From: Bacillota bacterium
GTDB lineage: Bacteria; Bacillota; Sulfobacillia; JAJZYS01; JAJZLH01
DNA length: 64,000 nucleotides
Assembly (NCBI GenBank): GCA_021803575.1
Contig: JAJZLH010000065.1
Coordinates: forward strand, 2,571 to 66,570
Direction of reading: 5' to 3'
The notes under the pieces are model-generated. The model worked only from the letters and a program-made list of their open reading frames with translations, ran no database searches and had not been told where the DNA came from. Position numbers and translations under genes: made by a program. Numbering within the stretch: position 1 is the stretch's first letter; each line of letters starts with the position of its first letter. Below are positions 6,832 through 48,265 of the stretch, one piece after another.

Positions 6832-7446
6832 TCACGGCGCGGCGTCCACCTGGCGGAGGCTGGGCATCACCTGCAGTGTGCCCTGGACCACCAGCGTGAA
6901 GAACTGTTCGCGCTGCCCATCCGTGACGCCGATCTGCCAGTTGCCATCAGCCGGCTGGGAAGAGGTCCAGGGCACGTACAGGACCCCCAGCTGATCGGCC
7001 CCGGTCACGGCCCAGGGCCGGGCGTTTAGAGAGGCGTAGTCGAGCACCTGGCCCTCGGCCGGCACCGAGATGCGAAACGCCGGCGGCAGGATGAAGGAGA
7101 GCGGCAGGCGGGCGCCCTGGACCAGCACCGACACCGCCTGGCCGCGCATGGCCTGGTGAGAGCCGGGTGCGATCGTCCAGTCGTCCTGAGGGCGAGGTCT
7201 GGCCACCACCGCCACCGCACGGCTGGCAAAGCCCCACTCACCCCGGTCGTCCTCCACCCACAGCGTCACGATATAGACTCCGGGGGAACCGAAGCTGCCG
7301 GCACGACCGAACCAGAGCTGGCGAATCAGGGCGTGCCCGGGGGCGGGATCGTATGAGCGGTCGATGTAGACGACGGGGCCTCCAACCAGCACCGGCGACG
7401 ACACATAGAAAGAAGCGACCGGCGGCGGGTAGTTAACCGGGCCCAT
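6832..7446 (-). CDS. hypothetical protein (205 aa), last gene of the Tad/T4SS-like operon
   Basis: Non-repetitive sequence MGPVNYPPPVASFYVSSPVLVGG...; ATG at 7444-7446 overlaps the stop of the upstream tadE-like gene. The 294-aa ORF in the track is this gene plus an out-of-frame read-through. Confidence 0.45.
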   Translation of the reverse strand: MGPVNYPPPVASFYVSSPVLVGGPVVYIDRSYDPAPGHALIRQLWFGRAGSFGSPGVYIVTLWVEDDRGEWGFASRAVAVVARPRPQDDWTIAPGSHQAMRGQAVSVLVQGARLPLSFILPPAFRISVPAEGQVLDYASLNARPWAVTGADQLGVLYVPWTSSQPADGNWQIGVTDGQREQFFTLVVQGTLQVMPSLRQVDAAP

Positions 7447-7891
7447 ACGCCACCTCCACATCGGCGGAGACCGCCTGCTGGAGGCCCATGCCGAGAAAGG
7501 AACTGGAAAAGGCCAGCTGACCGCCCAGGCCAGGCAGGGCGAAGTGGTAGCCGGTGACGGGATCGGTGGTGCCGGCGGCGTAGAGGGTGAGCGCGGGCGC
7601 TGCCGACTCGGCCAGGGCCGAGGGCAGATCAGCGGCCAGCACGGCGCGAAAGGTCTGCTTGGCCAGGGCCGGGTCGATCTGGGGGCCGAGCGGCCCGACG
7701 GGCAGGACCACCTCACTGCCGGCAGCGCGCAGGGCTGCAGAGAGAGCGGTGTAGGCCTGGAAGCGCGCCCACAGCGCCCGCTCCAGGGTGAGACCTGCTC
7801 CCAGTGCGAACATCAGGAGCAGCTCGACGAAGACGGCCAGAATGTAGATGACATGACCCTCGTCACGGCGTACCAGGTGCCACTTCCTCAC
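7433..7891 (-). CDS. TadE/TadG-like pseudopilin
   Basis: N-terminus EGHVIYILAVFVELLLMFALGAG is a TadE-like hydrophobic segment, then a soluble domain; 152 aa. Confidence 0.5.
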   Translation of the reverse strand: MRKWHLVRRDEGHVIYILAVFVELLLMFALGAGLTLERALWARFQAYTALSAALRAAGSEVVLPVGPLGPQIDPALAKQTFRAVLAADLPSALAESAAPALTLYAAGTTDPVTGYHFALPGLGGQLAFSSSFLGMGLQQAVSADVEVAYGPG

Positions 7892-8303
7892 TGTCCACTA
7901 CCTCCTGTTGGCCAAGGTGCAGGACCGTTCCGGCCAGGCCGAGCAAGGTGAAGGGGAAGCCCTGGAGGGGGATGCCAATAGCCACCGACACGGTCACGGG
8001 CTGGCCCCAGGGCACGACCGGCAGTGAGCCGGAAACCAGCGGCCGAGCAGAAATCCCGGCGTCGGCGAGGGCGCTCACCACAGCCTCAGACACCGCCGGC
8101 GTCACGCCGCCGTCCAGTGCCGCCGTCTCGGCGCCGACCTGAGCGGCGAAGGAGAGGTCGGTGGACCACTCGGCGACGCGCCAGGCGGCGAGGCCGCCGA
8201 ACAGGGTGAGCACCAGCAGTGGCAGCACCAGCGCCGTGGCGATGTAGACGTCGAGACTGCCCTCTTGCCGGGTGTGCCTACTGGCCGGTCGTGATCGGCA
8301 CAT
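7863..8303 (-). CDS. tadE: TadE-like pseudopilin
   Basis: RQEGSLDVYIATALVLPLLVLTLFGGLAAW closely matches the TadE N-terminal motif (a-LVLP-llll-fG); 146 aa. Confidence 0.6.
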   Translation of the reverse strand: MCRSRPASRHTRQEGSLDVYIATALVLPLLVLTLFGGLAAWRVAEWSTDLSFAAQVGAETAALDGGVTPAVSEAVVSALADAGISARPLVSGSLPVVPWGQPVTVSVAIGIPLQGFPFTLLGLAGTVLHLGQQEVVDSEEVAPGTP

Positions 8304-8496
8304 TCAGCCAGGCGGTGATGATGTCCCGGATGTGGGCGCCCACGGCGCTGAAGGCAAACAGAATGACCCCGGTCAGACTGACGGCAGCCAGGGCCATAAT
8401 GCCCTGTGCGATGTAGGTGGAGAGATCTCCGCGCTGGGAGCGGGCGAGGGTGGCGAGCGCCTGGCACCAGAGGCGGCCGTACGCAAACAGTGACAT
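8278..8496 (-). CDS. flp: Flp/Fap-type pilin candidate (73 aa), not present as a separate ORF in the track
   Basis: ATG at 8494-8496 overlaps the tadC stop (ATGA). Product MSLFAYGRLWCQALATLARSQRG|DLSTYIAQGIMALAAVSLTGVILFAF...: charged leader ending in G, then a ~25-aa hydrophobic helix with Tyr at +5 (class III signal-like). Confidence 0.5.
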   Translation of the reverse strand: MSLFAYGRLWCQALATLARSQRGDLSTYIAQGIMALAAVSLTGVILFAFSAVGAHIRDIITAWLNVPITTGQ

Positions 8497-9152
8497 CAGA
8501 GGATCCCCTTCCCGGGCAGAATGCCGAACTGGCGGATCAGAGCGACCAGGTGCGGGTAGCCGAACAAAATGGCGGCGTTGATCATGAACAGCCCGGCCAT
8601 CACGGTCAGGAGGTAGGGGACGAAGCCAGCCTGGCGGCGGATTCTGGAAAGGCGGGCCTGGCGCGAGATCGACTCCTGGGCTGCCATGGTCTGCCGGAGC
8701 GGGACGCCCAGCGTCTCTCCGGCACGTAGCGCCGAGATCAGGTTCTGGCCGGATGGGAAGGCGAGATCGCTGGACAGACGGGCCAGTGCGGCGGACAGAT
8801 CGGATGAGTGCAGCAGGTCGTCCCGGAACGACTTGAGCGGTGCAGCCAGGGGCCCCAGGGCGTCCGAGGGCAGGTGCAGCATGGTGGCCACGGCGCCCAG
8901 CCCGTTCTCCGCCGACATGCGCAGGAGCAGGAGGAGATCGGGGAACCAGGCCTCCATCCGCCCGAGCAGGCGCCGTCGGGCCAGGGCAGCGCTGAGCGGT
9001 GAGACACCGTAGGCAGCCAGAAGCGCCAGTGGTGTGAGGCTGGGGAAGAGCGGGGCAACCGCCATCAGGAGCCAGCCGCCCGGGTGGCGGGGCAGCCGCC
9101 TCCAGGCCAAGGCTGAGAGGGTCAGAGCGAGGGCGGCCAGATGACTCACCAT
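8496..9152 (-). CDS. tadC: TadC (type II secretion system F-domain platform protein)
   Basis: EAWFPDLLLLLRMSAENGLG...ISALRAGETLGVPLRQT...LLTVMAGLFMINAAILFGYP are T2SSF-domain signatures. Start placed at the ATG 9150-9152 with GGAG 7 nt upstream (overlaps the tadB stop); an alternative start is at 9227. Confidence 0.75.
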   Translation of the reverse strand: MVSHLAALALTLSALAWRRLPRHPGGWLLMAVAPLFPSLTPLALLAAYGVSPLSAALARRRLLGRMEAWFPDLLLLLRMSAENGLGAVATMLHLPSDALGPLAAPLKSFRDDLLHSSDLSAALARLSSDLAFPSGQNLISALRAGETLGVPLRQTMAAQESISRQARLSRIRRQAGFVPYLLTVMAGLFMINAAILFGYPHLVALIRQFGILPGKGIL

Positions 9153-9802
9153 AGGAGAGACTCCGGCTGGAAGTAGGGAGTACACAGCATGCTCGCCGTG
9201 GACAGAAGCACCCAACCGGAAAGCCACCGGCCGGCGCCTGACTGAAATAGGGAGCGTTCGGCCGGCGAGAGCAGGACGGCCGCCGCCAAGGCCAGCTCAA
9301 TCAGGAAGAAGAGGGCGGTGGCAGCTGTCAGTGCCGACTGCTCATTGCGCCACTGACCCGCCAGCTGGATGCGCTGCTCCACCTCCTGGAGGAGGATCAA
9401 TAGCGGGCGCTCCAGGCTGAGGCCGACCTGGACAGTGTCCTGGCCGAACAGTTGCCGGAGAGAGGTCTGGAGCCAGTGGGGCGCCCTGGGGTCGGACAGC
9501 AGAAACGAGGCCTCCGCGCCACCGGCGCCCAGCACCTCGTCGGGCTGGAGGGTGAGGGCGCTCATCTCGAACATCGCCTCCAGGCAGCGCTCGGTTGCAA
9601 CCAAGGTGCGACGGAGATCCCGGTTACGGCGCCAGCGGTCGAAGGCGGGCCAGGCGACGGCGCTCAGCGCCAGGGCCGGCACCAAGGTGACGGCGCCTCC
9701 CCACGTCCAGCCCAAGGCGGCGCCCAGCGGCAATAGAGCCAGCCGACGCTGGGTGATGGCCAGGGCGGAGGCGGAGAGAAGAGCGACCCACCAGATGGTC
9801 AC
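9146..9802 (-). CDS. tadB: TadB (T2SSF-domain platform protein)
   Basis: Three-TM T2SSF-like organisation (VTIWWVALLSASALA..., ...ALFFLIELALAAAVLL). GTG at 9800-9802 overlaps the cpaF stop (GTGA). The N-terminal 91 aa of the track ORF are an out-of-frame extension. Confidence 0.65.
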   Translation of the reverse strand: MTIWWVALLSASALAITQRRLALLPLGAALGWTWGGAVTLVPALALSAVAWPAFDRWRRNRDLRRTLVATERCLEAMFEMSALTLQPDEVLGAGGAEASFLLSDPRAPHWLQTSLRQLFGQDTVQVGLSLERPLLILLQEVEQRIQLAGQWRNEQSALTAATALFFLIELALAAAVLLSPAERSLFQSGAGRWLSGWVLLSTASMLCTPYFQPESLLW

Positions 9803-10806
9803 GGCCGGCCCTCCCCGGCCGCCCTCTGGCCATCGCTCCAGGCGAACTCGCCGCAGCGGTCCTCGATGGACAGGACCCGGACGCCCTCCTCGGTGCGGGA
9901 CATCAGTACCACCAGCCCGATCTCGGCGCGGAACGACTCCTCCAGGGCACTGGCGGAACTGGTGGGCAGTGCGGTCTGGGCCAGCCAGGCCAGGCGCTGG
10001 TGCACCCTGTCCGCACTGAGGGCGTGGATGGTGGCGAACGACCCGGCGTGTCCCGAGGAGAGGGCGAGCAACCACTCAAAGGCCTCCGCCCCGCGCAGCT
10101 CACCGATGCCCAGGCGATCGGGCCGCAGGTGCAGGGCGTGCCGAATGGCATCGCGGGCCGATACCGCGAAGCGGCCCTCGCGGTTGGCCGGTCTGGTCTC
10201 CAGTTCGATGACGTGCTGGTGGCATCCGACCAGGAACAGCTCGCGGACCTCTTCGACCACCACGATGCGATCGTCCGGAGGCATCTGGGACACCAGCCAG
10301 CGCAGGAGCGTCGTCTTACCGGACCCGGTCGGGCCGGCCACCAGGAATGAGCGGCGGCTATGGGCGATGGCACGCAGATGCCGCTCGGCCGTCGCATCGA
10401 ACATGCCGCGGCTGAGCAGGGCGTCCGTGGTCCACCGCTCGGGGCGGTGGATGCGGACCGAGATCGAGGGCTCCAGGGAATAGGGGGGAATGGTGAGGCC
10501 AATCCGGCAGTGGCCGAGCGTGATGGACTGGAAGGGCTGGGCCAGGGAGAGGTCGCGCCCTCCGGCTGTGGCCAGGTGAAGGGCCAGGTCGAGCGCAGCG
10601 ACCGGCGATGACAGCGTGCCAGCTGCCAGGAGGGCGTTGTCACGGCAAATCGTGATGGTGTTGCCACAGACGAAGACGTCGGAGACGGCGGGATCATCCA
10701 GAAACGGCCGCAGCGGGCCCCAGGGTGCGTCGTGCGGGCTCTCAGCGGAGGGGGCCGCCTCCCGGTTGAAGACGACTGAGCGGCTGGGGCTGCTGGCTGA
10801 TGCCAA
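9799..10806 (-). CDS. cpaF: CpaF/TadA pilus-assembly ATPase (VirB11/GspE superfamily), short form
   Basis: FLVAGPTGSGKTTLL Walker A; VVVEEVRE.. Walker B/Asp box; RPDRLGIGELRGAEAFEWL His box; 335 aa with no N-terminal accessory domain. Confidence 0.85.
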   Translation of the reverse strand: MASASSPSRSVVFNREAAPSAESPHDAPWGPLRPFLDDPAVSDVFVCGNTITICRDNALLAAGTLSSPVAALDLALHLATAGGRDLSLAQPFQSITLGHCRIGLTIPPYSLEPSISVRIHRPERWTTDALLSRGMFDATAERHLRAIAHSRRSFLVAGPTGSGKTTLLRWLVSQMPPDDRIVVVEEVRELFLVGCHQHVIELETRPANREGRFAVSARDAIRHALHLRPDRLGIGELRGAEAFEWLLALSSGHAGSFATIHALSADRVHQRLAWLAQTALPTSSASALEESFRAEIGLVVLMSRTEEGVRVLSIEDRCGEFAWSDGQRAAGEGRP

Positions 10807-11698
10807 TGGCGATCACCTCCTCGAGGCGCAGGTGGCGGAAGAGGTCACGGAACGGCGCCACGACCTGGGCCGGGAGGGGCCGGCCTGCAGCCAGGAGGTC
10901 GACTGGTGCCTGGCGCAGCCTGGGCAGGGCGAGTGCGGTTCCGGCCCCCAGCCGGCAACGACCCAGCACCTGGTTGAGGACGCACAGTCCCCCTGGGTCG
11001 GCGGGGGAGCGGGGCCGGCCGAGGGCCGGGGCGGAGAGGACGGTAACGGAGCGGCTTTGCGAAGGCTCCCACGGACCGTCGATCACACACACAGCCGGAT
11101 AGGGCGGCAGGGCCTCGCTGGAGCTGAGTAGCCTCGGCCCGCAGGCGGCTGACAGCTGGGGATGGTCGGTGAGGGACCGGGCGAGCAGGCCGTCGGCGGA
11201 CCGGTCCACCAGATAGGCCGCCATGCCCCGGGAGAGGCAGTAGAGAAACAGCCCCAGTGCCACCGTGCTCTGACCGATGCTGCCGGAGCGACGCTGGCAG
11301 GCGATCACGGTGACCGGCGGCAGGGCAGCGGCGATCAGCCGGAGCAGCGTCTCGCCGGTGAAGGCGCCGCTCAAGAGGTGCCTGACGCCAAGTTTGCGCA
11401 GGCCGATCACCGCCGCCGGGTCGCTGCGCGAGTCGGGCAGGATGTAGATGATCTGGCTGGGGGACATGTCGAGAGCCTGAACCAGTGCCAGGGGTCTCGC
11501 CGGCATGTCGGGCAGGGTGTGGCTGAGGATGAGCACATCCGGCCGGTGGGCGGCGACGGCATCAGCGACGAGGGCCGCAGACCGCACCTCGGCCACCACC
11601 TCCACCGCGCTCTGGGCATCGAGGAAGCGGCAGACGGCGTCCTGATCGAGGACACTGTGCGCCGCCACCAGCACTAAGGGACGCCCTACGAATGCCAC
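10742..11698 (-). CDS. cpaE: CpaE/TadZ-like (receiver-like N-domain plus ParA/MinD-like domain, atypical P-loop)
   Basis: N-terminal CheY-like fold (DAVAAHRPDVLILSHTLPDM) and C-terminal MinD-like region (VTVIACQRRSGSIGQSTVALGL) with a non-canonical Walker A; position between cpaB and cpaF. Confidence 0.55.
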   Translation of the reverse strand: MAFVGRPLVLVAAHSVLDQDAVCRFLDAQSAVEVVAEVRSAALVADAVAAHRPDVLILSHTLPDMPARPLALVQALDMSPSQIIYILPDSRSDPAAVIGLRKLGVRHLLSGAFTGETLLRLIAAALPPVTVIACQRRSGSIGQSTVALGLFLYCLSRGMAAYLVDRSADGLLARSLTDHPQLSAACGPRLLSSSEALPPYPAVCVIDGPWEPSQSRSVTVLSAPALGRPRSPADPGGLCVLNQVLGRCRLGAGTALALPRLRQAPVDLLAAGRPLPAQVVAPFRDLFRHLRLEEVIAIGISQQPQPLSRLQPGGGPLR

Positions 11699-12267
11699 GG
11701 CAGCACGACCACCTTTCCCCCCGCCAGGGCGTACTCCACCAATTCCGCCGCTCCCAGCGGCAGGCTGACTGAGACGAACGAGCCCTGGGCCGTGGTGAGA
11801 ACAGCAGCGACCGGTGCCCGTGCGACCAATACCTGGGGAGAGGGCGGGCCGGCCAAGAGCAGCATCACCGCCCCGTGTGCGCCGAGGCCGGGAGGGATGA
11901 TCGGCAGAGGGATCGTCACCAGCAGGGAGGACGGCGGCGGCTGGGGCTTCGGCATGTGCCTGGTCACGGCCCGGGGCGAGATCACCGTGCCCGGTGCAGC
12001 AGCTGCGATCAGGCGCCAGCCGACGGGCGGTGCGGGGAAGGTGCCGCCCGGCACGGCGGCCCCCGCCGCCAGCTCAAGCGGCAGGAGGTCCCGGGCTTCC
12101 AGGAGCGTCCCCGCCGGCAGCGGCCGGGCGGCCATCCAGACGGTGCGCCCGGACGGGGGGCCGGGCGGGAAGAGCGCCACCAGGAGAGCCGCCGCCGAGA
12201 GAATCACCGGCAGAAGGGACAAGGGCGGTCGCCAGGACCAGATCGAAGCCGGGCGAGCGGTGGTCAT
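11686..12267 (-). CDS. cpaB: CpaB/RcpC-like Flp-pilus assembly protein (TM plus SAF domain)
   Basis: ATG at 12265-12267 with GGGAGG 10 nt upstream. N-terminal TM LSLLPVILSAAALLVALF; SAF-like segment VWMAARPLPAGTLLEARDLLPLELAAGAAVPGG. Confidence 0.6.
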   Translation of the reverse strand: MTTARPASIWSWRPPLSLLPVILSAAALLVALFPPGPPSGRTVWMAARPLPAGTLLEARDLLPLELAAGAAVPGGTFPAPPVGWRLIAAAAPGTVISPRAVTRHMPKPQPPPSSLLVTIPLPIIPPGLGAHGAVMLLLAGPPSPQVLVARAPVAAVLTTAQGSFVSVSLPLGAAELVEYALAGGKVVVLPWHS

Positions 12268-12283: not shown

Positions 12284-14161
12284 CTAACGCAGCGAGACAG
12301 GCGTGGTATTGGCGATCGATGACTCCAGGGCACTGAGGCTGATCGTGACCGGCCGCACGCCGCTGTCCACTAAGAGCGCCTCGCCCGGCTCGGCCAGGGA
12401 CAGCCACTGACTGGGGCGAGCCGACAGGCGGTAGCGCTGGCGGAGCATGCGGAGGTCATCAGGGCTCTGGCGGAACAGCACCAGCAGGCCGGCGTTGGCC
12501 AGCAGGAGGCCGCCGTCGTCGGAGAGCAGGAAGTCGCCGACGTTCTGGGTGACACCGGTGAAGCTGACGCCGACCTTTCTGGCCCGCTTCAACAGGGACA
12601 GGAGGCTGGATCGCACCTGGCCGTGGCGCAGGAAGAGATGCACCTCATCGAGCGTGACCGAGAGCGGATATCCCTGCTGGCGATGACTGCGCACCCAGTC
12701 TCCGACCAGTTCGATCAGGAGCGGAACGGCGGCCGAGACCGTTTCCGAGTCTGCCTGGCTCAGGTTGAAGGCGATCAGGCGGTGATCCGGAAAGCGGCGG
12801 AGGGGGGCCGAGAATCCCCTGAGCGGGCCATCCGCATAGGGCCACACCACCGGAAAGAGGGGATCGTCCGCGGGGATCCGCCCCAGCAGGTCGCGAAAGG
12901 TGGGTGCCGTGCTGTGCCGGTAGCACTCCGCCAGGAGGAGCCGGAGGCGGAGGACCTCGGCCGGGCCGAGGTTCCCTGCCAAAAGAGCCGGGATGCGCAA
13001 CAGCTTGCCCTCCACATCCCCTCGGCCGGGAGCGGCCAGGGGATTCAGCTGAGTGCCGCTGGCGCCGATCGGGATCGAGATTCCCTGCAGGTGGCGGACC
13101 AGCAGTTCGTACTCGCCTTCGGGATCAAAGACGATGGCTCTCGCATCGGACGCCTCGAGCCGTCGCAGGAGCTCGACCTTGCTAAACGTAGACTTGCCGC
13201 TTCCAGGAAGGCCCAGCACGAAGGCGGACGGATTGGTCTGCCAGCGCTGGTGCATGACCAGGCACTGGTGGTCCGAGTCAATGCCGAGGAATAGGTGTCG
13301 CTCCTGATCGGCCGCTGGGGCAGCCCACTCGTACAGGCCGAGGTGGGTGAGGGTCTGGGCGTCCAGCATGCGGAGCAGCGGCGGCTCAACCCCGAATCGC
13401 TCGCTGAACAGCCTGTGGACGCCGGCCTGCTGGAAGGGGATCGGTGCGAAGGCGAAGCCCAGGCTATGGGCAAGCTGACGAAACATGCGGAGCTCCCTAG
13501 ACGTGGGCAGACCTGGGAAAGCAGCCGCCACCGCCACCCGGAATAGACGATTGGTGCGCCCGACCAGCTGATCGAGCAGAGCCGCCGCGTCCTCAGCTGG
13601 GCGTTTATAGACGGGATCCCTGTGGACATGGGGGCCAAGCGCGCGCAGCCGGTGGCGGAGCAGCCGTGTGGCGTCGGTCACGGCCATGGGAGAGAAGTCG
13701 AACAGGAGGTCGAACCGGCCGGGGGCCGTGAACAGGGGGGCGAGCAGATCGATGGACAGTTGAGGTGGCCAGGAAGTGGCCACCAGGAAGGTGACATCAC
13801 CCTGGGAGCCGCTGATGTGGCGCAGGTGCTCTACAGCGACCGTTCCACCCGGCGCCCGAAGCAGTGGATCCGGCCGGCCAAACCGGAGGTGACGGGCCAA
13901 GGGAAGAGGCGTGAGGGCCCCCGGGGTGAGCAGGTGGAGGTCGGCGTGCCTGAGAGTGGCCGGCAGCTGGTGCCCCTCGTCGTAGAGATGGGCGAGGTGC
14001 GGCAGCTCGGATAGCTCTGTGTCACTGAGGGGCCGGGAGCGGAACCAGAACCTGAGATCGTGCGGGACGTGGAGGAGAAAGTTCAGGTCCTCTTCCTGGA
14101 AGGCAGACCGCTCATCGTCCCCAAGCCAGCGGAGGTGGACGGGGTGAACCAGCTGGCGCAT
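12284..14161 (-). CDS. VirB4/TrbE/CagE-family ATPase, short (625 aa)
   Basis: Walker A VLGLPGSGKSTF followed by AIVFDPEGEY; Walker B VTLDEVHLFL (DEAW-like); C-terminal KRARKVGVSFTGVTQN matches the VirB4 aRK..G....TQ motif; the N-terminal half resembles the VirB4 N-domain. Confidence 0.7.
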   Translation of the reverse strand: MRQLVHPVHLRWLGDDERSAFQEEDLNFLLHVPHDLRFWFRSRPLSDTELSELPHLAHLYDEGHQLPATLRHADLHLLTPGALTPLPLARHLRFGRPDPLLRAPGGTVAVEHLRHISGSQGDVTFLVATSWPPQLSIDLLAPLFTAPGRFDLLFDFSPMAVTDATRLLRHRLRALGPHVHRDPVYKRPAEDAAALLDQLVGRTNRLFRVAVAAAFPGLPTSRELRMFRQLAHSLGFAFAPIPFQQAGVHRLFSERFGVEPPLLRMLDAQTLTHLGLYEWAAPAADQERHLFLGIDSDHQCLVMHQRWQTNPSAFVLGLPGSGKSTFSKVELLRRLEASDARAIVFDPEGEYELLVRHLQGISIPIGASGTQLNPLAAPGRGDVEGKLLRIPALLAGNLGPAEVLRLRLLLAECYRHSTAPTFRDLLGRIPADDPLFPVVWPYADGPLRGFSAPLRRFPDHRLIAFNLSQADSETVSAAVPLLIELVGDWVRSHRQQGYPLSVTLDEVHLFLRHGQVRSSLLSLLKRARKVGVSFTGVTQNVGDFLLSDDGGLLLANAGLLVLFRQSPDDLRMLRQRYRLSARPSQWLSLAEPGEALLVDSGVRPVTISLSALESSIANTTPVSLR

Positions 14162-14165
14162 GCGC

Positions 14166-14480
14166 CTAGGTGCGTCGGACGAGGCGGGGTGCTACGGACC
14201 TGGCAGCCGGGCGGCGACGGAGCTGGCGGACGAGCCAGGGAGCGGCCCACATCAGCAGCGTGCGCAGGGCGAAGCCATCCACGGCGGCGAAACAGAGCAG
14301 TAGGAACGTCGCCCACAGAGCGGCGGCCAGTGCCATGGCAGCGGTGGAGCCAACGGTCAGTAGCTGGAAGGTGAGCATGGCCAGAGCAATGGCGCAGACG
14401 GCTGTCCATCCGTCCAGACCCCACAGCACAGGTTCACTCGACCGCAGCAGGTCCTGGGGGACCGGGTGGTGGGAGGGCAT
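14166..14480 (-). CDS. VirB3-like small two-TM membrane protein (104 aa)
   Basis: Directly upstream of, and 4 nt from, the VirB4-like gene, which is the canonical virB3-virB4 order. EPVLWGLDGWTAVCAIALAMLTF resembles the VirB3 P-x-x-x-G-L-T-R-P plus TM region; two hydrophobic helices. Confidence 0.4.
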   Translation of the reverse strand: MPSHHPVPQDLLRSSEPVLWGLDGWTAVCAIALAMLTFQLLTVGSTAAMALAAALWATFLLLCFAAVDGFALRTLLMWAAPWLVRQLRRRPAARSVAPRLVRRT

Positions 14481-14504
14481 AGGGGCGGCACCTCTGCTTT
14501 CGTC

Positions 14505-15257
14505 TCAAAAGTTCAGCCATTGAGCCGCCGCCGCCCACAGCGGATAGGATCGCCCGCTGCCGCTGATCAGGCGGCGGAAGAGGGCGGGAGCGCGAATCAT
14601 CAGGTAGAGGGCTGCCAGCCCGACCAGGGCGTTGGCAGGGCCTGGGCCTTCCAGTCCGGAGAGTCCCCTCGATAGCACCAGCACAAAGGCCTGCACCGTC
14701 TGAACCAATGTGACGACCACCAGTTCCTCGAAATAACGGGTGCCCACCCTGCGTGTCTCGGGCCAGGCGATCGCCATCATGCCCAGCGGCGAGATGGTGG
14801 CCAGAAACATGAGTTCGATGGCGCGGATCAGATAGACAACGGTGAGAGCGATGAGCAACAGCAGGTAGGGTAGCCACAGGACCAAGTCGGCCAGGATCTG
14901 TGTGGGCAGCGAAATGGGGCTCAGGTGGATGGCGACCCGGGCGGCGAGAGAGGCGATCAGGGCGTTGTTGAGATGAATCAGGAAGATGCAGATGCGCATG
15001 GAGAGAAGGGCCAGCACCGCCGTTAGAGCCAAAGACACCAGCAGCTTGAGCCAGTTGACGGGCGAACCGGTCATGGTGCGGGCCGCCGTGGCAAGGACCA
15101 GGATGACGGTGCACACCCCGACCAGCGACAGCGAGAAGTGCCATAGGGTGGACACGATCGGCAGCAGCCAGACGGCTGGGGTGATGGAGACCAGGGGAGC
15201 GAGGATGCCGAACACGCTCTGGAGAATGGGCTGGACCGCTGCTGCGATGAGGCTCAA
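14505..15257 (-). CDS. VirB6/TrbL-like polytopic membrane protein (250 aa, about 6 TM)
   Basis: Six predicted hydrophobic helices with no Asp/GGD prepilin-peptidase motifs; size and topology fit a VirB6/TrbL (or archaeal CedA-like) channel protein. Confidence 0.45.
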   Translation of the reverse strand: MSLIAAAVQPILQSVFGILAPLVSITPAVWLLPIVSTLWHFSLSLVGVCTVILVLATAARTMTGSPVNWLKLLVSLALTAVLALLSMRICIFLIHLNNALIASLAARVAIHLSPISLPTQILADLVLWLPYLLLLIALTVVYLIRAIELMFLATISPLGMMAIAWPETRRVGTRYFEELVVVTLVQTVQAFVLVLSRGLSGLEGPGPANALVGLAALYLMIRAPALFRRLISGSGRSYPLWAAAAQWLNF

Positions 15258-15493
15258 AAGGGTGCACCCTGTCCCGCCCAGGAGTAGACGAGGCGGACCA
15301 GGTCCTGGGCGAAGACCACCACCACCAGCCCGCCCACGACGGCCGCCAGATGGCGCCAGGCATGGCTGCGTTGAGCCGGGTTATCGCCGCTGGTCCACAG
15401 CAGGTAGCCTCCCCACAGCAAGAACAGCACGCTCGCTGTCCCCAGCCACGCCTGAACGGTGGAGATGACGTTGAGCAGGAAGTGCTGAACCAT
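15254..15493 (-). CDS. small two-helix membrane protein (79 aa), VirB2/TrbC-pilin-like candidate; first gene of the operon
   Basis: Two hydrophobic segments (TASVLFLLWGGYLLW and LAAVVGGLVVVVFA) separated by a polar loop; AAGGAG RBS 9 nt upstream; stop overlaps the next gene's start. Confidence 0.35.
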   Translation of the reverse strand: MVQHFLLNVISTVQAWLGTASVLFLLWGGYLLWTSGDNPAQRSHAWRHLAAVVGGLVVVVFAQDLVRLVYSWAGQGAPF

Positions 15494-43810: not shown

Positions 43811-45318
43811 ACTTGCCATTGATTCGGCCGCCCGCCGTGGCGCTCAACCTGATCACGCCGGAACTGGCGCTGCTCGCCACCTCGATCCTGATCCTCTTGG
43901 TGGCTCTGTTTGACCGGCCGGGCCATGGCCACCTCCGGCTCAGCCTGATCGCCATGGCCGGCATCCTGGTGGCCGTGGTGCGCGACGGCATGCTCTTGGC
44001 AGGGGGAAGTCTGCCGGCCACCACCTTCGCTGGCACGTTGATCATGGATCCCCTGTCCGCGGTGCTGGACCTGGTCATCCTGCTTTCGGCCCTGGTGGCG
44101 GTGGTACTGGCCATGAACCGCCCGGAGGGGTCGCCTGACTACCTGGCCCTTTTGCTCTGGTCGGCCATCGGCATGATGGTGCTGGTCTCGGCCCATGACC
44201 TGATCGTGCTCTTTCTGGCGGTCGAGGTGCTGTCCTTGCCGCTCTACATCCTGTGCGCCTTCCGGCCGGACCGCCCGGCCTCCCTGGAGGCGGCGGTCAA
44301 GTACTTCCTGCTCGGCGCCTTCTCCTCCGGTTTTCTCCTCTACGGACTGGCCCTCTTGTTCGGCCTCTCCGGCGGCACCAACCTGAGCCAGGTGGCATCG
44401 GCCCTGGCCGGGGTAGGCTCGGCGCCCCTGTTCGCGCACTCGGCGGCCAGCGCCGGCGTGCTGGCCGAGGTGGCCGTGGGGCTGGTGGTGGTGGGCCTCG
44501 GCTTCAAACTGGGCGCCGTGCCGTTCCACCAGTGGGTGCCGGACGTGTACGAAGGGGCGCCCACCTCGGTCGTGACCTTCATGTCGGTGGGCACCAAGGT
44601 GGCGGCCTTCGGCGTGCTGGCCCGCCTGGTGGTGACCGTGCTTCAGGGCAGCGCCGTCGACTGGCAGAGCCTGCTCGGCGCCCTGGCGGTGGCGACCATC
44701 ATCGGCGGCGCCCTCCTGGCGCTGCCGCAGCGGAACTTCAAGCGCCTCTTGGGCTACTCCGGCATCCTGAACGCCGGCTATCTGGTGGCGGTGCTGGTGG
44801 TTGGCACCGCCGCCGCCCAGGCCGCCGGCGTCTACTTCCTCATCACCTACGCCCTGATGAATCTGGGCGCCTTCGCCGTCATCTCGGCGGTCTCAGCCGG
44901 TCATGAGGACGGCGTCATGCTGGAGCACTACCGGGGCCTCTTCTACCGGCAGCCCTGGATGGCGGTGGCGATGGCCGTGTTCTTGCTGTCCCTGGCGTCG
45001 ATCCCGCCGCTCAGCGGCTTCTTCGGCAAGCTGTTCCTCTTGGAGGCCCTGATCAGCGGCCACCAGCTGTTCCTGGCCCTCACCGTGGTGGCCGGCACCG
45101 CCGTCACCCTGATCGTGTACGGCCGTCCGCTGCTGGCCATGTTCATACCGGCCGACGCGCCCGCGGCGCCGTCCGCCCGTCCGGCGCCTGCGGTGGCGGT
45201 GGCGGTGGGCGTGCTGGCGGTGGCGGTGGTAGCGGTCGGGGTGGCACCGGGACTCCTGGTCCAGCTGGTGCACGGGGTGGCGCACAGCGGGCCCCTGGCC
45301 GGGATCAGCCGGCGCTAG
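43807..45318 (+). CDS. nuoN: NADH-quinone oxidoreductase subunit N
   Basis: Antiporter-like subunit; FLAVEVLSLPLYILCAF, GAVPFHQWVPDVYEGAPTSVV motifs. Confidence 0.9.
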   Translation: MNLPLIRPPAVALNLITPELALLATSILILLVALFDRPGHGHLRLSLIAMAGILVAVVRDGMLLAGGSLPATTFAGTLIMDPLSAVLDLVILLSALVAVVLAMNRPEGSPDYLALLLWSAIGMMVLVSAHDLIVLFLAVEVLSLPLYILCAFRPDRPASLEAAVKYFLLGAFSSGFLLYGLALLFGLSGGTNLSQVASALAGVGSAPLFAHSAASAGVLAEVAVGLVVVGLGFKLGAVPFHQWVPDVYEGAPTSVVTFMSVGTKVAAFGVLARLVVTVLQGSAVDWQSLLGALAVATIIGGALLALPQRNFKRLLGYSGILNAGYLVAVLVVGTAAAQAAGVYFLITYALMNLGAFAVISAVSAGHEDGVMLEHYRGLFYRQPWMAVAMAVFLLSLASIPPLSGFFGKLFLLEALISGHQLFLALTVVAGTAVTLIVYGRPLLAMFIPADAPAAPSARPAPAVAVAVGVLAVAVVAVGVAPGLLVQLVHGVAHSGPLAGISRR

Positions 45319-48265
45319 GAGCGGTCCCGCCGTTCTCAGCGACCGAGCGGATGGAGCCCGGTGCCTCAGCCAGGGCCTCCCGCAGCGCCTGCTCGGCGCC
45401 GCTCACCAGTAAGGCGGCCTTCCGTCCGCTGGTCGGGAAGGTGGCAAGCCCGACGCTCACCGTGAGGTCGAAGTCGGCGGCCAGGGGGCCGTGGCTGATG
45501 GCGTCCTGAAGGCGGAGGGCGAGGGCGCGGGCGGAGCGCTCCCGGGCGCCGCCGGCGATGACCGCCATGGTGTCGTCGTCCCAGCGGGCCGGAAAGTCGC
45601 CGCGCCGGCAGTGGGCGCGCACCGACCGGCCGACCTCCGCCAAAAGGCGGTCGGCGGCGGCGGCACCGAACAGCTCCCTGACTCTCGCCAGGTCTGAGAT
45701 GTGAAAGAGGAGCAGTGAGAAGGAGCGGCGGCCGCGCACGGCTTGCGCAGTGTCGCGGTCCAGCTGGTCCAGAAAGGCCTGTTGGTTGGCGAGACCGGTG
45801 GCGTGGTCGGTGAGGGCCAGCCGCCGGATCTCCTGTTCGCGCTGGTGGCGGTAGATGATCAGGCTGACCAGGCCGGAGAACACCTCCAGCATGGAGCGGA
45901 CCGGCGGCGGGAAGGCGTCCACCTTCCGGCTCTCAATGTTCAAGACCCCCTCGACGCGGCCGTCGACGATGATGGGCAGGGCCAGTTCTGAGCGCACCTC
46001 CGGGTTTCCCATCACATAGATGGGATCGGACAGCACGTTCGGCACGTAGTAGGGGAGGCCGTTTCTGGCCACCCAGGCCACCACGCCGCGGTTGCCCTGC
46101 ACCTCGACCCGGAGGTCACCGATCAGCTGCCGGGTGTAGCCGCGCTGACAGGCCACGTAGAGCTCCCGCCGCTGCTCGTCCAGGAGCAGGATGGACCCCA
46201 GCTCGGTCAGGAACAGCTCCTCCAGCGACTTGAGGATGACGTCCAACAGCCCCTGCAGGCTGCCCTCGCCAGGCGGCACGCTGAACAGCGCCTCGGTCAG
46301 GGCGCCCGGCTCCAGCCGGGACAGGATGTGACGCTGCACCGACTCCGGCTGGGGCAGGGTCGGTGCCTCGGTCTCCAGGGCGGGCGCACCGCTGGTCAGC
46401 TCCGCCTCGCTGAGGCGCAAGAACGCCTCCACCACGCCGGGGTCGAACTGCCGGCCCTGCTCCCGCACCAGCTCTGCCACGGCGTCCTGGTGGGTGAGGG
46501 GATGGCGGTAGGGCCGGATCGAGGTCATGGCGTCGTAGGAGTCGGCGACCGAGAAGATGCGGGCCAAGAGCGGGATGTTCTCGGCGGCGATGCCCTCCGG
46601 ATAGCCGGTCCCGTCGTAGCGCTCATGGTGGCAGCGCACCACGTCCAGGCTCTTGCCCAGGAAGTCGAGGTGGGAGAGCATGCGGTAGCCCAGGGTCGGG
46701 TGCGCCTGCATCACCTGGCGCTCCTCGTGGGTGAGCGGTCCCGGCTTGCTGAGAATGGCGTCTGGCACGCCGATCTTGCCGATGTCGTGCAGGTGGGCGC
46801 CCCACTCCAGATGGAGGAGGTCTTCCCGGCCCAGTCCCAGGCGGCGGCCCAGTGCCAGGGCGATGCGCACGGCCCGGTCCGAGTGGCCCATGGTGCCTGG
46901 GTCGCGCAGCCCGAGGGCGTCACCGAGGGCGGCCAGCGTGGCCGTGTAGCCGTTCCACAGGGCCTCCTGGCGCCGCTCGCTCTCCACCTGCAGGGCGGTG
47001 AGCTGGGTGAGCTGCTGCAGGGTGCGGGCCCGGGCGTAAGCGCCGGCCAGGGCCAGGGCCGTCTGCTCGGCGGCCAGGGTGAGGAGGGTGGCCTCCGAGC
47101 TTCCGTAGGCGACTGGCGGCCTGGCGGCCGCCACCACCACGCCCAAGAGCTGATCGGCCATGCGCATCGGACTGACCAGGAGGCTCTGGGCGCCGGTCTT
47201 GGCCAAGGCCGGCGGCACGGGCCAGGGGGCCGCCGTGACCGACGGCAAAAGGAGCGTCTCCCGGCCCCGGGCGGCTGTGGCGATGGCATCCTGTGCGGTG
47301 GCCAGTCTGATCTCGTTCAGGGCCTGGGGCCACTGGTGGCCCACGCCGACCGAGAGCGAGAGCATCTCCTCGTCCGGGGTGTAGACGGCCACGAAGTCAG
47401 CCGGCAGCACCGGCGCCAGCATCTGGACCAGGGCCTGGGCGATGTCGCCGGGCTGCTCCAGAGCGAGCAAGCGCGCGCTGAAGGCGGAGAGGGCGTCGGT
47501 CCGGTCGGTGCGGCGCGGCGTGACCGGCGCCAGCAGAGCGGTGTCGTCGACGATGGCGCCGAGGAGGGCCGAGACCCGCCGCACCGTCTCCGCCTCGAGC
47601 GGCGTCACCAGGCGCTCTTCGGCGAAGGCCAAGGAAAGCAGGCCCACCGGCCGGCCCAGGCTGAGCAAGGTACCGCTCAGGTGCCAGGACAGGGACGAGG
47701 CGTGCCCGGGACCCTGGTCCAGCCGCTCGCAGGTCTCCACCCGGCGGCCCGAGGCCAAGACGCCCTGGTCCAGCTGGTGCTGGCACCAGCACGGCGACCA
47801 GGTGAGGGCGGCCTGCCCGTGGGCGGCCAGCGCCTTCGGCAGCTGCCAGCTGGCTAGCAGGACAAAACTGGCGTCCGAACGCCGGCCGTGGATCCAGCCG
47901 GCGTCGGCGCCCATGGCGGTCCCCAGTCTGGCCAAAAAGCGCTCCGCCACGGCGGCGGCATCTGTGCCCTGCATCACCTCGTCCGCCAAATCGGCGAGAA
48001 GGCCGCGAGCCTTGGCCGGCGTCAGGTGGGACAGCGTGATGATGATCCCTCCGAACGACCGGGGTAGGAGGAGATGCGCAGCGACGGTATCGGCGAGGTC
48101 GAATGGGTGCGGTGTTCGACGCCGGGCCACCACATCCTTGTGCCGGCAGTAACAGGGAGGGCGGCGGCGGTCGGCGAAGGGGCTGGGCCGAGAGTGAGGG
48201 GGTCGAGCGGTGCCCAGACACTTCCTGAGAGGCGCCTTTTTGCTCGCCCTAGCCGGGTTCCTCAC
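45305..48265 (-). CDS. multidomain c-di-GMP signalling protein: GAF domains, HD-GYP phosphodiesterase, C-terminal degenerate GGDEF
   Basis: HD-GYP core HLHDIGKIGVPDAILSKPGPLT...HHERYDGTGYPEG; GAF-like blocks; C-terminal GGDEF-fold region where the GG(D/E)EF motif reads RWDDDTMAVIAGG. The first ~60 aa of the track ORF are low-complexity, so the true start is probably downstream. Confidence 0.7.
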   Translation of the reverse strand: MRNPARASKKAPLRKCLGTARPPHSRPSPFADRRRPPCYCRHKDVVARRRTPHPFDLADTVAAHLLLPRSFGGIIITLSHLTPAKARGLLADLADEVMQGTDAAAVAERFLARLGTAMGADAGWIHGRRSDASFVLLASWQLPKALAAHGQAALTWSPCWCQHQLDQGVLASGRRVETCERLDQGPGHASSLSWHLSGTLLSLGRPVGLLSLAFAEERLVTPLEAETVRRVSALLGAIVDDTALLAPVTPRRTDRTDALSAFSARLLALEQPGDIAQALVQMLAPVLPADFVAVYTPDEEMLSLSVGVGHQWPQALNEIRLATAQDAIATAARGRETLLLPSVTAAPWPVPPALAKTGAQSLLVSPMRMADQLLGVVVAAARPPVAYGSSEATLLTLAAEQTALALAGAYARARTLQQLTQLTALQVESERRQEALWNGYTATLAALGDALGLRDPGTMGHSDRAVRIALALGRRLGLGREDLLHLEWGAHLHDIGKIGVPDAILSKPGPLTHEERQVMQAHPTLGYRMLSHLDFLGKSLDVVRCHHERYDGTGYPEGIAAENIPLLARIFSVADSYDAMTSIRPYRHPLTHQDAVAELVREQGRQFDPGVVEAFLRLSEAELTSGAPALETEAPTLPQPESVQRHILSRLEPGALTEALFSVPPGEGSLQGLLDVILKSLEELFLTELGSILLLDEQRRELYVACQRGYTRQLIGDLRVEVQGNRGVVAWVARNGLPYYVPNVLSDPIYVMGNPEVRSELALPIIVDGRVEGVLNIESRKVDAFPPPVRSMLEVFSGLVSLIIYRHQREQEIRRLALTDHATGLANQQAFLDQLDRDTAQAVRGRRSFSLLLFHISDLARVRELFGAAAADRLLAEVGRSVRAHCRRGDFPARWDDDTMAVIAGGARERSARALALRLQDAISHGPLAADFDLTVSVGLATFPTSGRKAALLVSGAEQALREALAEAPGSIRSVAENGGTAPSAG

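Follow-up and report, generated by a model that had tools for sequence, protein, structure and literature searches.

A small gene at 8278..8496 on the minus strand (72 aa + stop), hereafter the candidate, was examined in a 64,000 nt stretch of DNA from a Bacillota bacterium (the window; 69% GC; all coordinates are window positions), where it lies between the TadC-like and TadE-like genes of a Tad-like cluster encoded entirely on the minus strand. Judged from its sequence and setting, the candidate probably encodes the major prepilin, Flp-like but non-canonical, of a divergent surface filament of Tad-like (type IVc) kind in an acid-loving, Sulfobacillus-related lineage of Bacillota. The new element is what appears to be a lineage-restricted Flp-like family that dispenses with the glutamate at position +5 (Glu5) in its predicted major and minor subunits and is unrecognised by the G/XXXXEY processing rule. 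Residues are numbered with Gly23 as position -1, so that D24 is +1 (Asp1), Y28 is +5 (Tyr5) and Q31 is Gln8; a slash in a motif marks the predicted cleavage site. Loci other than the window are denoted by L and a number, L024 being an actinobacterial (Pseudonocardia) DUF4244 locus. The family was aligned as 15 members (alignment A6; further family alignments A1 and A2), TadE-like neighbors were compared (alignment A3) over the window and 12 related loci with sequence downstream, and a third prepilin-like gene was sought in 12 related loci.

The candidate open reading frame (ORF) extends from an ATG at 8496-8494 to a TAG stop at 8280-8278, 73 codons including the stop, as given in an earlier account made from the DNA letters alone (the sequence-only reading). 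The overlap with the tadC stop, described there as ATGA, is in fact TGATG, the tadC TGA at 8498-8496 having a single base in common with the candidate ATG. A Shine-Dalgarno-like AAGGGG, read from the sequence, is located at 8505..8510 (-), 8 nt upstream of the ATG and inside the 3' end of tadC; a start codon later than 8496 was excluded, there being no ATG, GTG or TTG between 8496 and the motif. For the TadE-like gene the ATG is at 8303, a start kept in orthologues as M-x-RSRP, and this gene overlaps the candidate by 26 nt; the 192-nt gap between tadC and this gene had been reported correctly. The candidate is translationally coupled on both sides and directly follows tadC. The 340-aa mechanical ORF at 8278..9300, set aside earlier as junk, does exist in the same frame as the candidate. 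Upstream of 8496, GC by codon position in that frame is 0.80/0.72/0.53, a non-coding pattern, versus 0.71/0.51/0.85 in the tadC frame, which is of coding type; the candidate itself gives 0.59/0.51/0.85, a pattern like that of the neighboring genes. An antisense ORF of 73 aa at 8272..8493 (+) mirrors the candidate and is a shadow of the minus-strand gene, as its GC of 0.84 at first (GC1) and 0.61 at third (GC3) codon positions indicates.

Dozens of chance ORFs of comparable length occur in the window and, as these are abundant at 69% GC, ORF length alone proves nothing. In comparisons of the mature part with the L001 and L010 orthologues, 21-22 synonymous and 3-6 non-synonymous substitutions were counted, for a ratio of non-synonymous to synonymous differences per site (pN/pS) of 0.05-0.10 at a pS of ~0.6. 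The candidate is a real gene under selection, and more than chance, because of its codon-position GC, its conservation in 14 loci and this pN/pS. It had been presented as unannotated, which does not hold: the identical 72-aa product has been called in the metagenome-assembled genome (MAG) assemblies GCA_027420335.1 and GCA_027420365.1 (NCBI) under the name hypothetical protein, and copies from relatives have likewise been called in other assemblies, always without function.

The product consists of a basic leader, an invariant Gly, a hydrophobic helix of ~27 residues and a short amphipathic tail, in agreement with the prepilin-like layout first proposed for it, Tyr at +5 included. The predicted leader peptide (residues 1-23, MSLFAYGRLWCQALATLARSQRG; 8428..8496, -) is 23 aa long and 2.6 kDa, with an isoelectric point of 10.8, a net charge of +3 and a grand average of hydropathy (GRAVY) of 0.17, and ends at the invariant Gly23. 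Assuming a cut after Gly23, the predicted mature pilin (residues 24-72, DLSTYIAQGIMALAAVSLTGVILFAFSAVGAHIRDIITAWLNVPITTGQ; 8281..8427, -) has 49 aa, 5.1 kDa and a GRAVY of 1.08, which is very hydrophobic; across the family the mature part measures 46-50 aa, which fits Flp pilin precursors of 50-80 aa (PMC4322843). An AlphaFold2 (AF2) model computed from the family alignment consists of one helix over residues 3-64, with a mean predicted local distance difference test score (pLDDT) of 81, rising to 92-95 over residues 31-60; the hydrophobic stretch directly after Gly23, DLSTYIAQGIMALAAVSLTGVILFAFSAVGA, lies in this helix with pLDDT >90. A Foldseek search of the model against the PDB returned no match, a result that is uninformative for a one-helix protein. 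Digestion with trypsin would yield the peptide DIITAWLNVPITTGQ from the candidate.

The family amounts to 15 clusters among 1.84 billion representative proteins, and was located at 14 loci, spread over about 12 species-level MAGs that bear the label 'Bacillota bacterium'; six close homologues of the candidate were found, some of them labelled Sulfobacillus sp. Leader residues 3-20 are almost free to vary even among orthologues 72-85% identical, and leader length across the family ranges from about 8 to 50 aa with an end of the form [DE]-[ER]-G; in close relatives, the segment from Q21-R22-G23 to the C-terminus is essentially invariant. All 15 members have G23, D24, L25, S26, A30, Q31 and G32; at +5 there is Tyr in 14 of them and Glu in none (the missing conserved Glu had been noticed before), at +6 there is Ile or Leu, and the hydrophobic stretch is without any Glu. 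The family consensus reads ..L.DERG/DLS[TA]Y[LI]AQGILALAAxSLTGVV..F..VG...DIV..W...P. A leader that varies in sequence and length ahead of a conserved remainder supports the identification as a pilin.

Additional copies of the small gene with an aberrant C-terminus (..QKGPDIFTLT..) were seen in different MAGs (L013 329-502, minus strand; L020 5587-5730; L022 10001-10144; proteins P0017 and P0020), and short N-terminal fragments of it stand elsewhere (L014 7132-7188; L020 7066-7125). These copies and fragments may represent paralogues or pseudogenes, perhaps connected with the activity of insertion sequences (IS).

The strongest new evidence in support of a pilin is a signal common to the candidate and its neighbor. 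A TadE-like protein of 137-152 aa directly follows the small gene in the window and in 12/12 related loci. In the window it is a predicted minor prepilin, ...TRQEG/SLDVYIATALVLPLL, encoded at 7863..8303 (-); its match to Pfam TadE (PF07811) is sub-threshold (E=0.0046; 17.5 bits versus a gathering score of 22.9), and a single-sequence AF2 model of it (pLDDT 55) was unusable. The signal [DE]RG/[DSA]L[SD]x[YF][LIV]A is repeated at the N-terminus of this protein in all 12 related loci, as it is in the window; examples are RQEG/SLDVYIATALVLPLL in the window, SSRG/ALSTYVATAIVLPLL in L007 and LSDRG/DLSAYLAVAMLLPLL in L014. At +5 this protein has Phe in L015 and L017 and Tyr in the other 10 related loci. 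A six-frame scan of all loci for G-x-L-x-x-[YF]-[ILVM]-A with a hydrophobic run behind it returned only the candidate and TadE-like genes, plus one spurious match inside TadA.

A third prepilin-like gene, in the TadF position (7433..7891, -; ...RRDEG/HVIYILAVFVELLLMFALGAG), encodes ~22 hydrophobic residues behind a charged leader whose last residue is Gly. Ten of the 12 related loci yielded this gene, and its signal is a looser one (..RRDEG/HVIYILAV.. in the window, ..AREDG/VWGVLAAA.. in relatives); no HMM matched it (HMM, hidden Markov model). With three consecutive prepilin-like genes after tadC, the segment would reproduce the flp-tadE-tadF arrangement (PMC4322843, PMC10191384). The wider gene order, CpaB-like, TadZ-like, TadA, TadB, TadC, small gene, TadE-like, puts the candidate in the Flp position and further supports a pilin; a 72-aa precursor inside a tad locus, between TadC-like and TadE-like genes, has the size and place of an Flp.

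The loss of Glu5 was considered in register with known families. DUF4244 proteins read G/M-A-T-A-E-Y-A and Flp proteins G/A-T-A-I-E-Y-G, and the candidate family reads G/D-L-S-T-Y-[IL]-A, so that Glu5 is replaced by Tyr and Tyr6 by Ile or Leu; the TadE-like partner shows the same replacement of Glu5, and Asp1 is invariant in the candidate family. By the G/XXXXEY rule the candidate has Gly at -1 and lacks both Glu at +5 and Tyr at +6. By the definition of class III signal peptides (PMC4471445) its 23-aa leader falls within the range of 6-26, is only moderately hydrophilic and ends in Gly, and ~21 mainly hydrophobic residues follow directly; the Glu of that definition at +5 is absent. Reviews describe Glu5 as nearly universal in the type IV pilins of bacteria, frequently missing from those of archaea, always dispensable for prepilin cleavage and required for homopolymer assembly (PMC4471445); in the filament it pairs with the N-terminal amine of the neighboring subunit (PMC10191384). 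Being dispensable for cleavage and needed for assembly, its loss is no argument against processing and implies a different packing. The role of Glu5 in neutralizing the N-terminal amine would most obviously pass to Asp1, to Tyr5, which is near-invariant, and to the invariant Gln8, a speculative assignment.

In the mechanism proposed for the candidate as a prepilin, the 7.7-kDa precursor would insert N-in into the membrane and be cut after Gly23 by an unlinked A24 aspartic prepilin peptidase of TadV or PilD type, leaving a 5.1-kDa mature pilin beginning Asp-Leu-Ser-Thr-Tyr. The same enzyme would process the TadE-like and TadF-like proteins, which would prime assembly, and a CpaF-type ATPase with TadB and TadC would extrude the filament. 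The N-terminal amine might then be neutralized in the core, with Glu5 lacking, by Asp1 and/or polar contacts of Tyr5 and Gln8; this last step is speculative.

Several results weigh against a pilin, the first group of them from tests of family membership. No pilin match at E<=10 was obtained with Pfam (including Flp_Fap, PF04964, and DUF4244, PF14029) or the NCBIfam models for the candidate, searched in full and as its mature part, or for 16 relatives; none was obtained in a PDB sequence search with the family profile. The Flp_Fap check proposed in the sequence-only reading therefore fails, and of its claim of an Flp-type pilin the part that stands is that the gene is real, under selection and placed where an Flp gene would be, whereas recognition by a pilin HMM does not stand. 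The only PDB match was to a human-type uracil-DNA glycosylase (E=0.01; 'GDLSGWAKQGVLLLNA...WLN', residues 23-49, window 8350-8430), judged a coincidence because that protein is a globular enzyme. A double-glycine bacteriocin leader was excluded (there is no GG), as was a Sec signal peptide, the cleavage-type motif preceding the hydrophobic core.

Reference proteins of DUF4244 and Flp_Fap were then taken from the database, checked by their precomputed Pfam tags and aligned. Against HMMs built from 18 PF04964 and 23 PF14029 proteins the family scored <=10.6 and <=11.8 bits, respectively, and cross HMM scores were all <=12 bits. By hhalign, the family scored 18.0 against DUF4244 (E=0.0096, probability 4.3%) over 52 collinear columns that extend from the leader past the Gly into the amphipathic segment at the C-terminus, and 16.3 against Flp_Fap. 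Shuffled columns scored 10.3+/-2.5 and reached the observed values in 2-3 of 100 trials (2/100 for DUF4244, 3/100 for Flp_Fap), and a reversed DUF4244 profile scored 16.4, so that homology is not demonstrated by these scores. With peptides so short and hydrophobic the comparison can discriminate little, the positive control, DUF4244 against Flp_Fap, having scored only 11.5. Membership of the candidate in the Flp family proper is accordingly not demonstrated at the sequence level, homology being neither shown nor excluded.

The remaining adverse points concern assembly, processing and context. Glu5 mutants of the bacterial pilins studied form no homopolymeric filaments (PMC4471445). The leader is moderately hydrophobic (GRAVY 0.17) and the AF2 helix runs through it. 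No A24 peptidase gene was found in the 64-kb window or in the annotated flanks of related loci, as had been stated earlier for the island; the search used annotated flanks covering window 1-42 kb together with an ORF and transmembrane screen and Pfam, and every stop-to-stop frame of >=110 aa with >=3 hydrophobic segments proved to be a gene of Tad or type IV secretion system (T4SS) type, Nuo, a flippase, a major facilitator superfamily transporter, a GGDEF protein or a nucleoside hydrolase. An unlinked tadV peptidase is the norm in Gram-positive tad loci (PMC4322843), and its absence here is hence not unusual. Finally, the link of the pilin module to an adjacent TadA/B/C machine is not universal, because L012, L014, L017 and L020 (match ~10001) have the small gene, two TadE-like genes and orf204, the gene of a 204-aa protein, beside abrB-rsmI without TadA/B/C within 10 kb upstream.

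Some of these results give what standing it has to the most probable alternative, that the candidate is an uncleaved bitopic inner-membrane accessory protein of a Tad-like or T4SS-like machine, its basic N-terminus cytoplasmic and ERGDLSxY a juxtamembrane interaction motif. It would account for the lack of pilin HMM support, of Glu5 and of a nearby peptidase, and for an AF2 helix uninterrupted over residues 3-64, the 'leader' included. A retained cytoplasmic segment, however, would not be expected to vary over 8-50 residues, nearly unconserved, beside a near-invariant remainder; the same motif opens the hydrophobic helix of the TadE-like protein, and the TadE family consists of processed pseudopilins; and the gene order equals flp-tadE-tadF (PMC4322843). 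On balance a bitopic accessory protein is considered rather unlikely.

A true prepilin-type subunit could instead belong to a four-gene module (pilin, two TadE-like genes, orf204) that serves another type IV filament machine encoded elsewhere, such as a Com-like or type IVa pilus-dependent pseudopilus, with the adjacency to tadABC secondary. The four loci in which the module stands beside abrB on its own are what this idea explains, as is the module being the most widely conserved part of the locus (orf204 is co-conserved with it in L001, L008 and L012-L020). Yet tadC immediately precedes the small gene in L001, L006, L007, L010, L011 and L021 as well as in the window, where the tadC stop and candidate start overlap. 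The region upstream in L014, which holds an AraC regulator, also carries ISL3 and IS4-type transposases, so that the arrangement there may be a secondary disruption. Service to a different machine is on these grounds very unlikely. An ORF arisen by chance in GC-rich DNA, or a tadC-tadE spacer without coding function, is hardly credible, since the abundance of chance ORFs of such length in the window and the lack of a database family are set against GC3 periodicity of coding type, the excess of synonymous over non-synonymous differences to orthologues and conservation of the protein across 14 loci and 15 representative clusters.

The closest counterparts of the candidate as a Flp-like prepilin are the DUF4244 (PF14029) proteins, Flp-like small proteins of the actinobacterial TIGR03819 'helicase/secretion neighbourhood' tad loci, which occupy the same slot in the order TadZ-like, TadA, TadB, TadC, small gene, TadE-like; the candidate, too, comes after tadC, in a tad locus of TIGR03819 type. 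The order in the Pseudonocardia locus L024 is Rv3660c_N protein, T2SSE, T2SSF, T2SSF, DUF4244, TadE/Tad, with a DEAD/MZB helicase nearby. M. tuberculosis Rv3656c is a DUF4244 protein. The likeness extends to the ATPase of the candidate's cluster, for which TIGR03819 is the best match, to a helicase neighbor in the relative L007, and to a similar size, a variable leader ending in [DE]xG and a collinear succession of leader, helix and amphipathic tail. The two differ in the motif (G/DLSxYLAQG in the candidate, G/M[AS]T[AV]EYA in DUF4244), in two extra residues before the LAA core of the candidate and in the hosts, Bacillota and not Actinobacteria; the Pfam DUF4244 model gives no match to the candidate. 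With the Flp/Fap type IVc pilins (PF04964; Caulobacter PilA, A. actinomycetemcomitans Flp1) the candidate has in common a small prepilin, a Gly-ending leader, a hydrophobic N-terminal helix and a tad locus that also encodes TadE/TadF-like proteins and an ATPase of CpaF type (PMC4322843, PMC10191384); it differs from them in having no HMM match, in Tyr at +5 with no Glu, and in a locus unaccompanied by tadV or secretin genes, the host being monoderm. Archaeal class III signal-peptide pilins differ from the candidate in that here the host is bacterial and the ATPase of CpaF type.

Gram-positive tad loci have been described with 'Flp pilin-like' proteins that depart from the Flp motif, and others without a recognisable prepilin motif (Imam et al. 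2011, PMC3244431), a pilin gap that the candidate family fits. The variants of that study keep E/D at +5 and lose Tyr6, whereas the candidate family loses Glu5 and has a variant motif in common with its TadE-like neighbor. Existing HMMs and motif rules are blind to the family, which may be why some Gram-positive tad loci seem pilin-less (PMC3244431); alignment A6 could seed an annotation model. A lineage with Tyr at +5 in its presumed major pilin and in the TadE-like partner (Phe in two TadE-like orthologues) would also directly test the role of Glu5 in assembly. The practical reach is narrow: about a dozen uncultured species are involved, and the gene is already called as hypothetical.

The cluster containing the candidate sits between metG and abrB-rsmI-holB, the same place in every relative having the cluster, and is transcribed in the order TrbC/VirB2-like, TrbL/VirB6-like, orf104, VirB4-like, CpaB/SAF-like, TadZ-like, CpaF-type ATPase, TadB-like, TadC-like, candidate, TadE-like, second prepilin-like gene after the candidate (TadF position) and 204-aa protein. 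The ATPase at 9799..10806 (-) matches Pfam T2SSE (1.5e-32) and is clearly of Tad type by sequence comparison: its best NCBIfam match is TIGR03819, 'TadA family conjugal transfer-associated ATPase' (1.2e-64, 218.7 bits, under the cutoff of 373), and its best PDB relative is CpaF (1.4e-34). In a plasmid collection it found only generic CpaF matches at 33-38% identity, and tblastn found no match there for the candidate pilin. In the public annotation of the window's MAG (L004 8093-8698) the TadA ATPase is only 201 aa long; a length of 333-335 aa is obtained from the ORF and from its orthologue in L001, so the start was probably set wrongly in the public call.

The TadC-like platform protein (8496..9152, -; 218 aa in the public call) reaches Pfam T2SSF at E=2.6e-5 (24.6 bits versus a cutoff of 25.2), and its orthologue in L006 has a precomputed PF00482 match. 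The TadB-like membrane protein (9146..9802, -; 218 aa) is assigned by position only: no Pfam match and no detectable similarity to TadC were found for it, and its size and position equal those of the T2SSF pair in L024. Upstream of tadA stand a TadZ-like protein (10742..11698, -) with a weak receiver-like N-terminus (Response_reg, E=0.015, sub-threshold), named mainly from that position, and a CpaB/RcpC-like SAF-domain protein (11686..12267, -; 193 aa in the public call; SAF E=0.0026 and TIGR03177 pilus_cpaB E=0.022, both sub-threshold).

A co-directional T4SS-like module (12284..15493, -) precedes the Tad genes, in an arrangement kept in L001, L010 and L011. It is composed of a TrbC/VirB2-like pilin of 79 aa (15254-15493, -; T4SS_pilin 6.4e-8, TrbC 2.5e-7), a TrbL/VirB6-like protein of 250 aa with ~7 transmembrane segments (14505-15257, -; TrbL_4 1.3e-9), orf104 with two such segments (14166-14480, -) and a VirB4-like ATPase of 625 aa (12284-14161, -; CD1110 family 9.1e-40). 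No relaxase or coupling protein was found between metG and abrB. Ahead of the small gene, L007 and L021 have TadA/B/C and, in place of the VirB-like genes, a DEXQ-type helicase; in L007 (929-3658), a more distant relative, the helicase is a 909-aa protein of DEXQ/Suv3 type, which echoes the 'helicase/secretion neighbourhood' of the actinobacterial TIGR03819 loci. Sulfobacillus plasmids are reported to carry a mixed T4SS/Tad conjugation backbone (PMC6803676). A joint and more speculative reading is reminiscent of that backbone: a filament in which Glu5 had been given up in all major and minor subunits, Asp1, Tyr5 and Gln8 taking over core packing and charge neutralization, would form with the VirB2/VirB6/VirB4-like module a chromosomal cell-to-cell DNA transfer or uptake apparatus of acidophilic Bacillota. 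This combination is judged unlikely.

The last gene of the pilin module, orf204 (6832..7446, -; 204 aa), has a faint PKD-like segment (PKD_4 E=0.043 on a longer ORF, nothing on the 204-aa form). No signal peptide is evident in the window copy, and the L008 homologue begins with the signal-peptide-like MKRTVLWLIPTVLLFP; orf204 could be a pilus-associated adhesin, or its start could be mis-set. At 45305-48265 (-), 37 kb from the pilus cluster, the window also encodes a 986-aa GAF-HD(HD_5)-GAF-GGDEF protein, which is likely involved in cyclic-di-GMP signalling.

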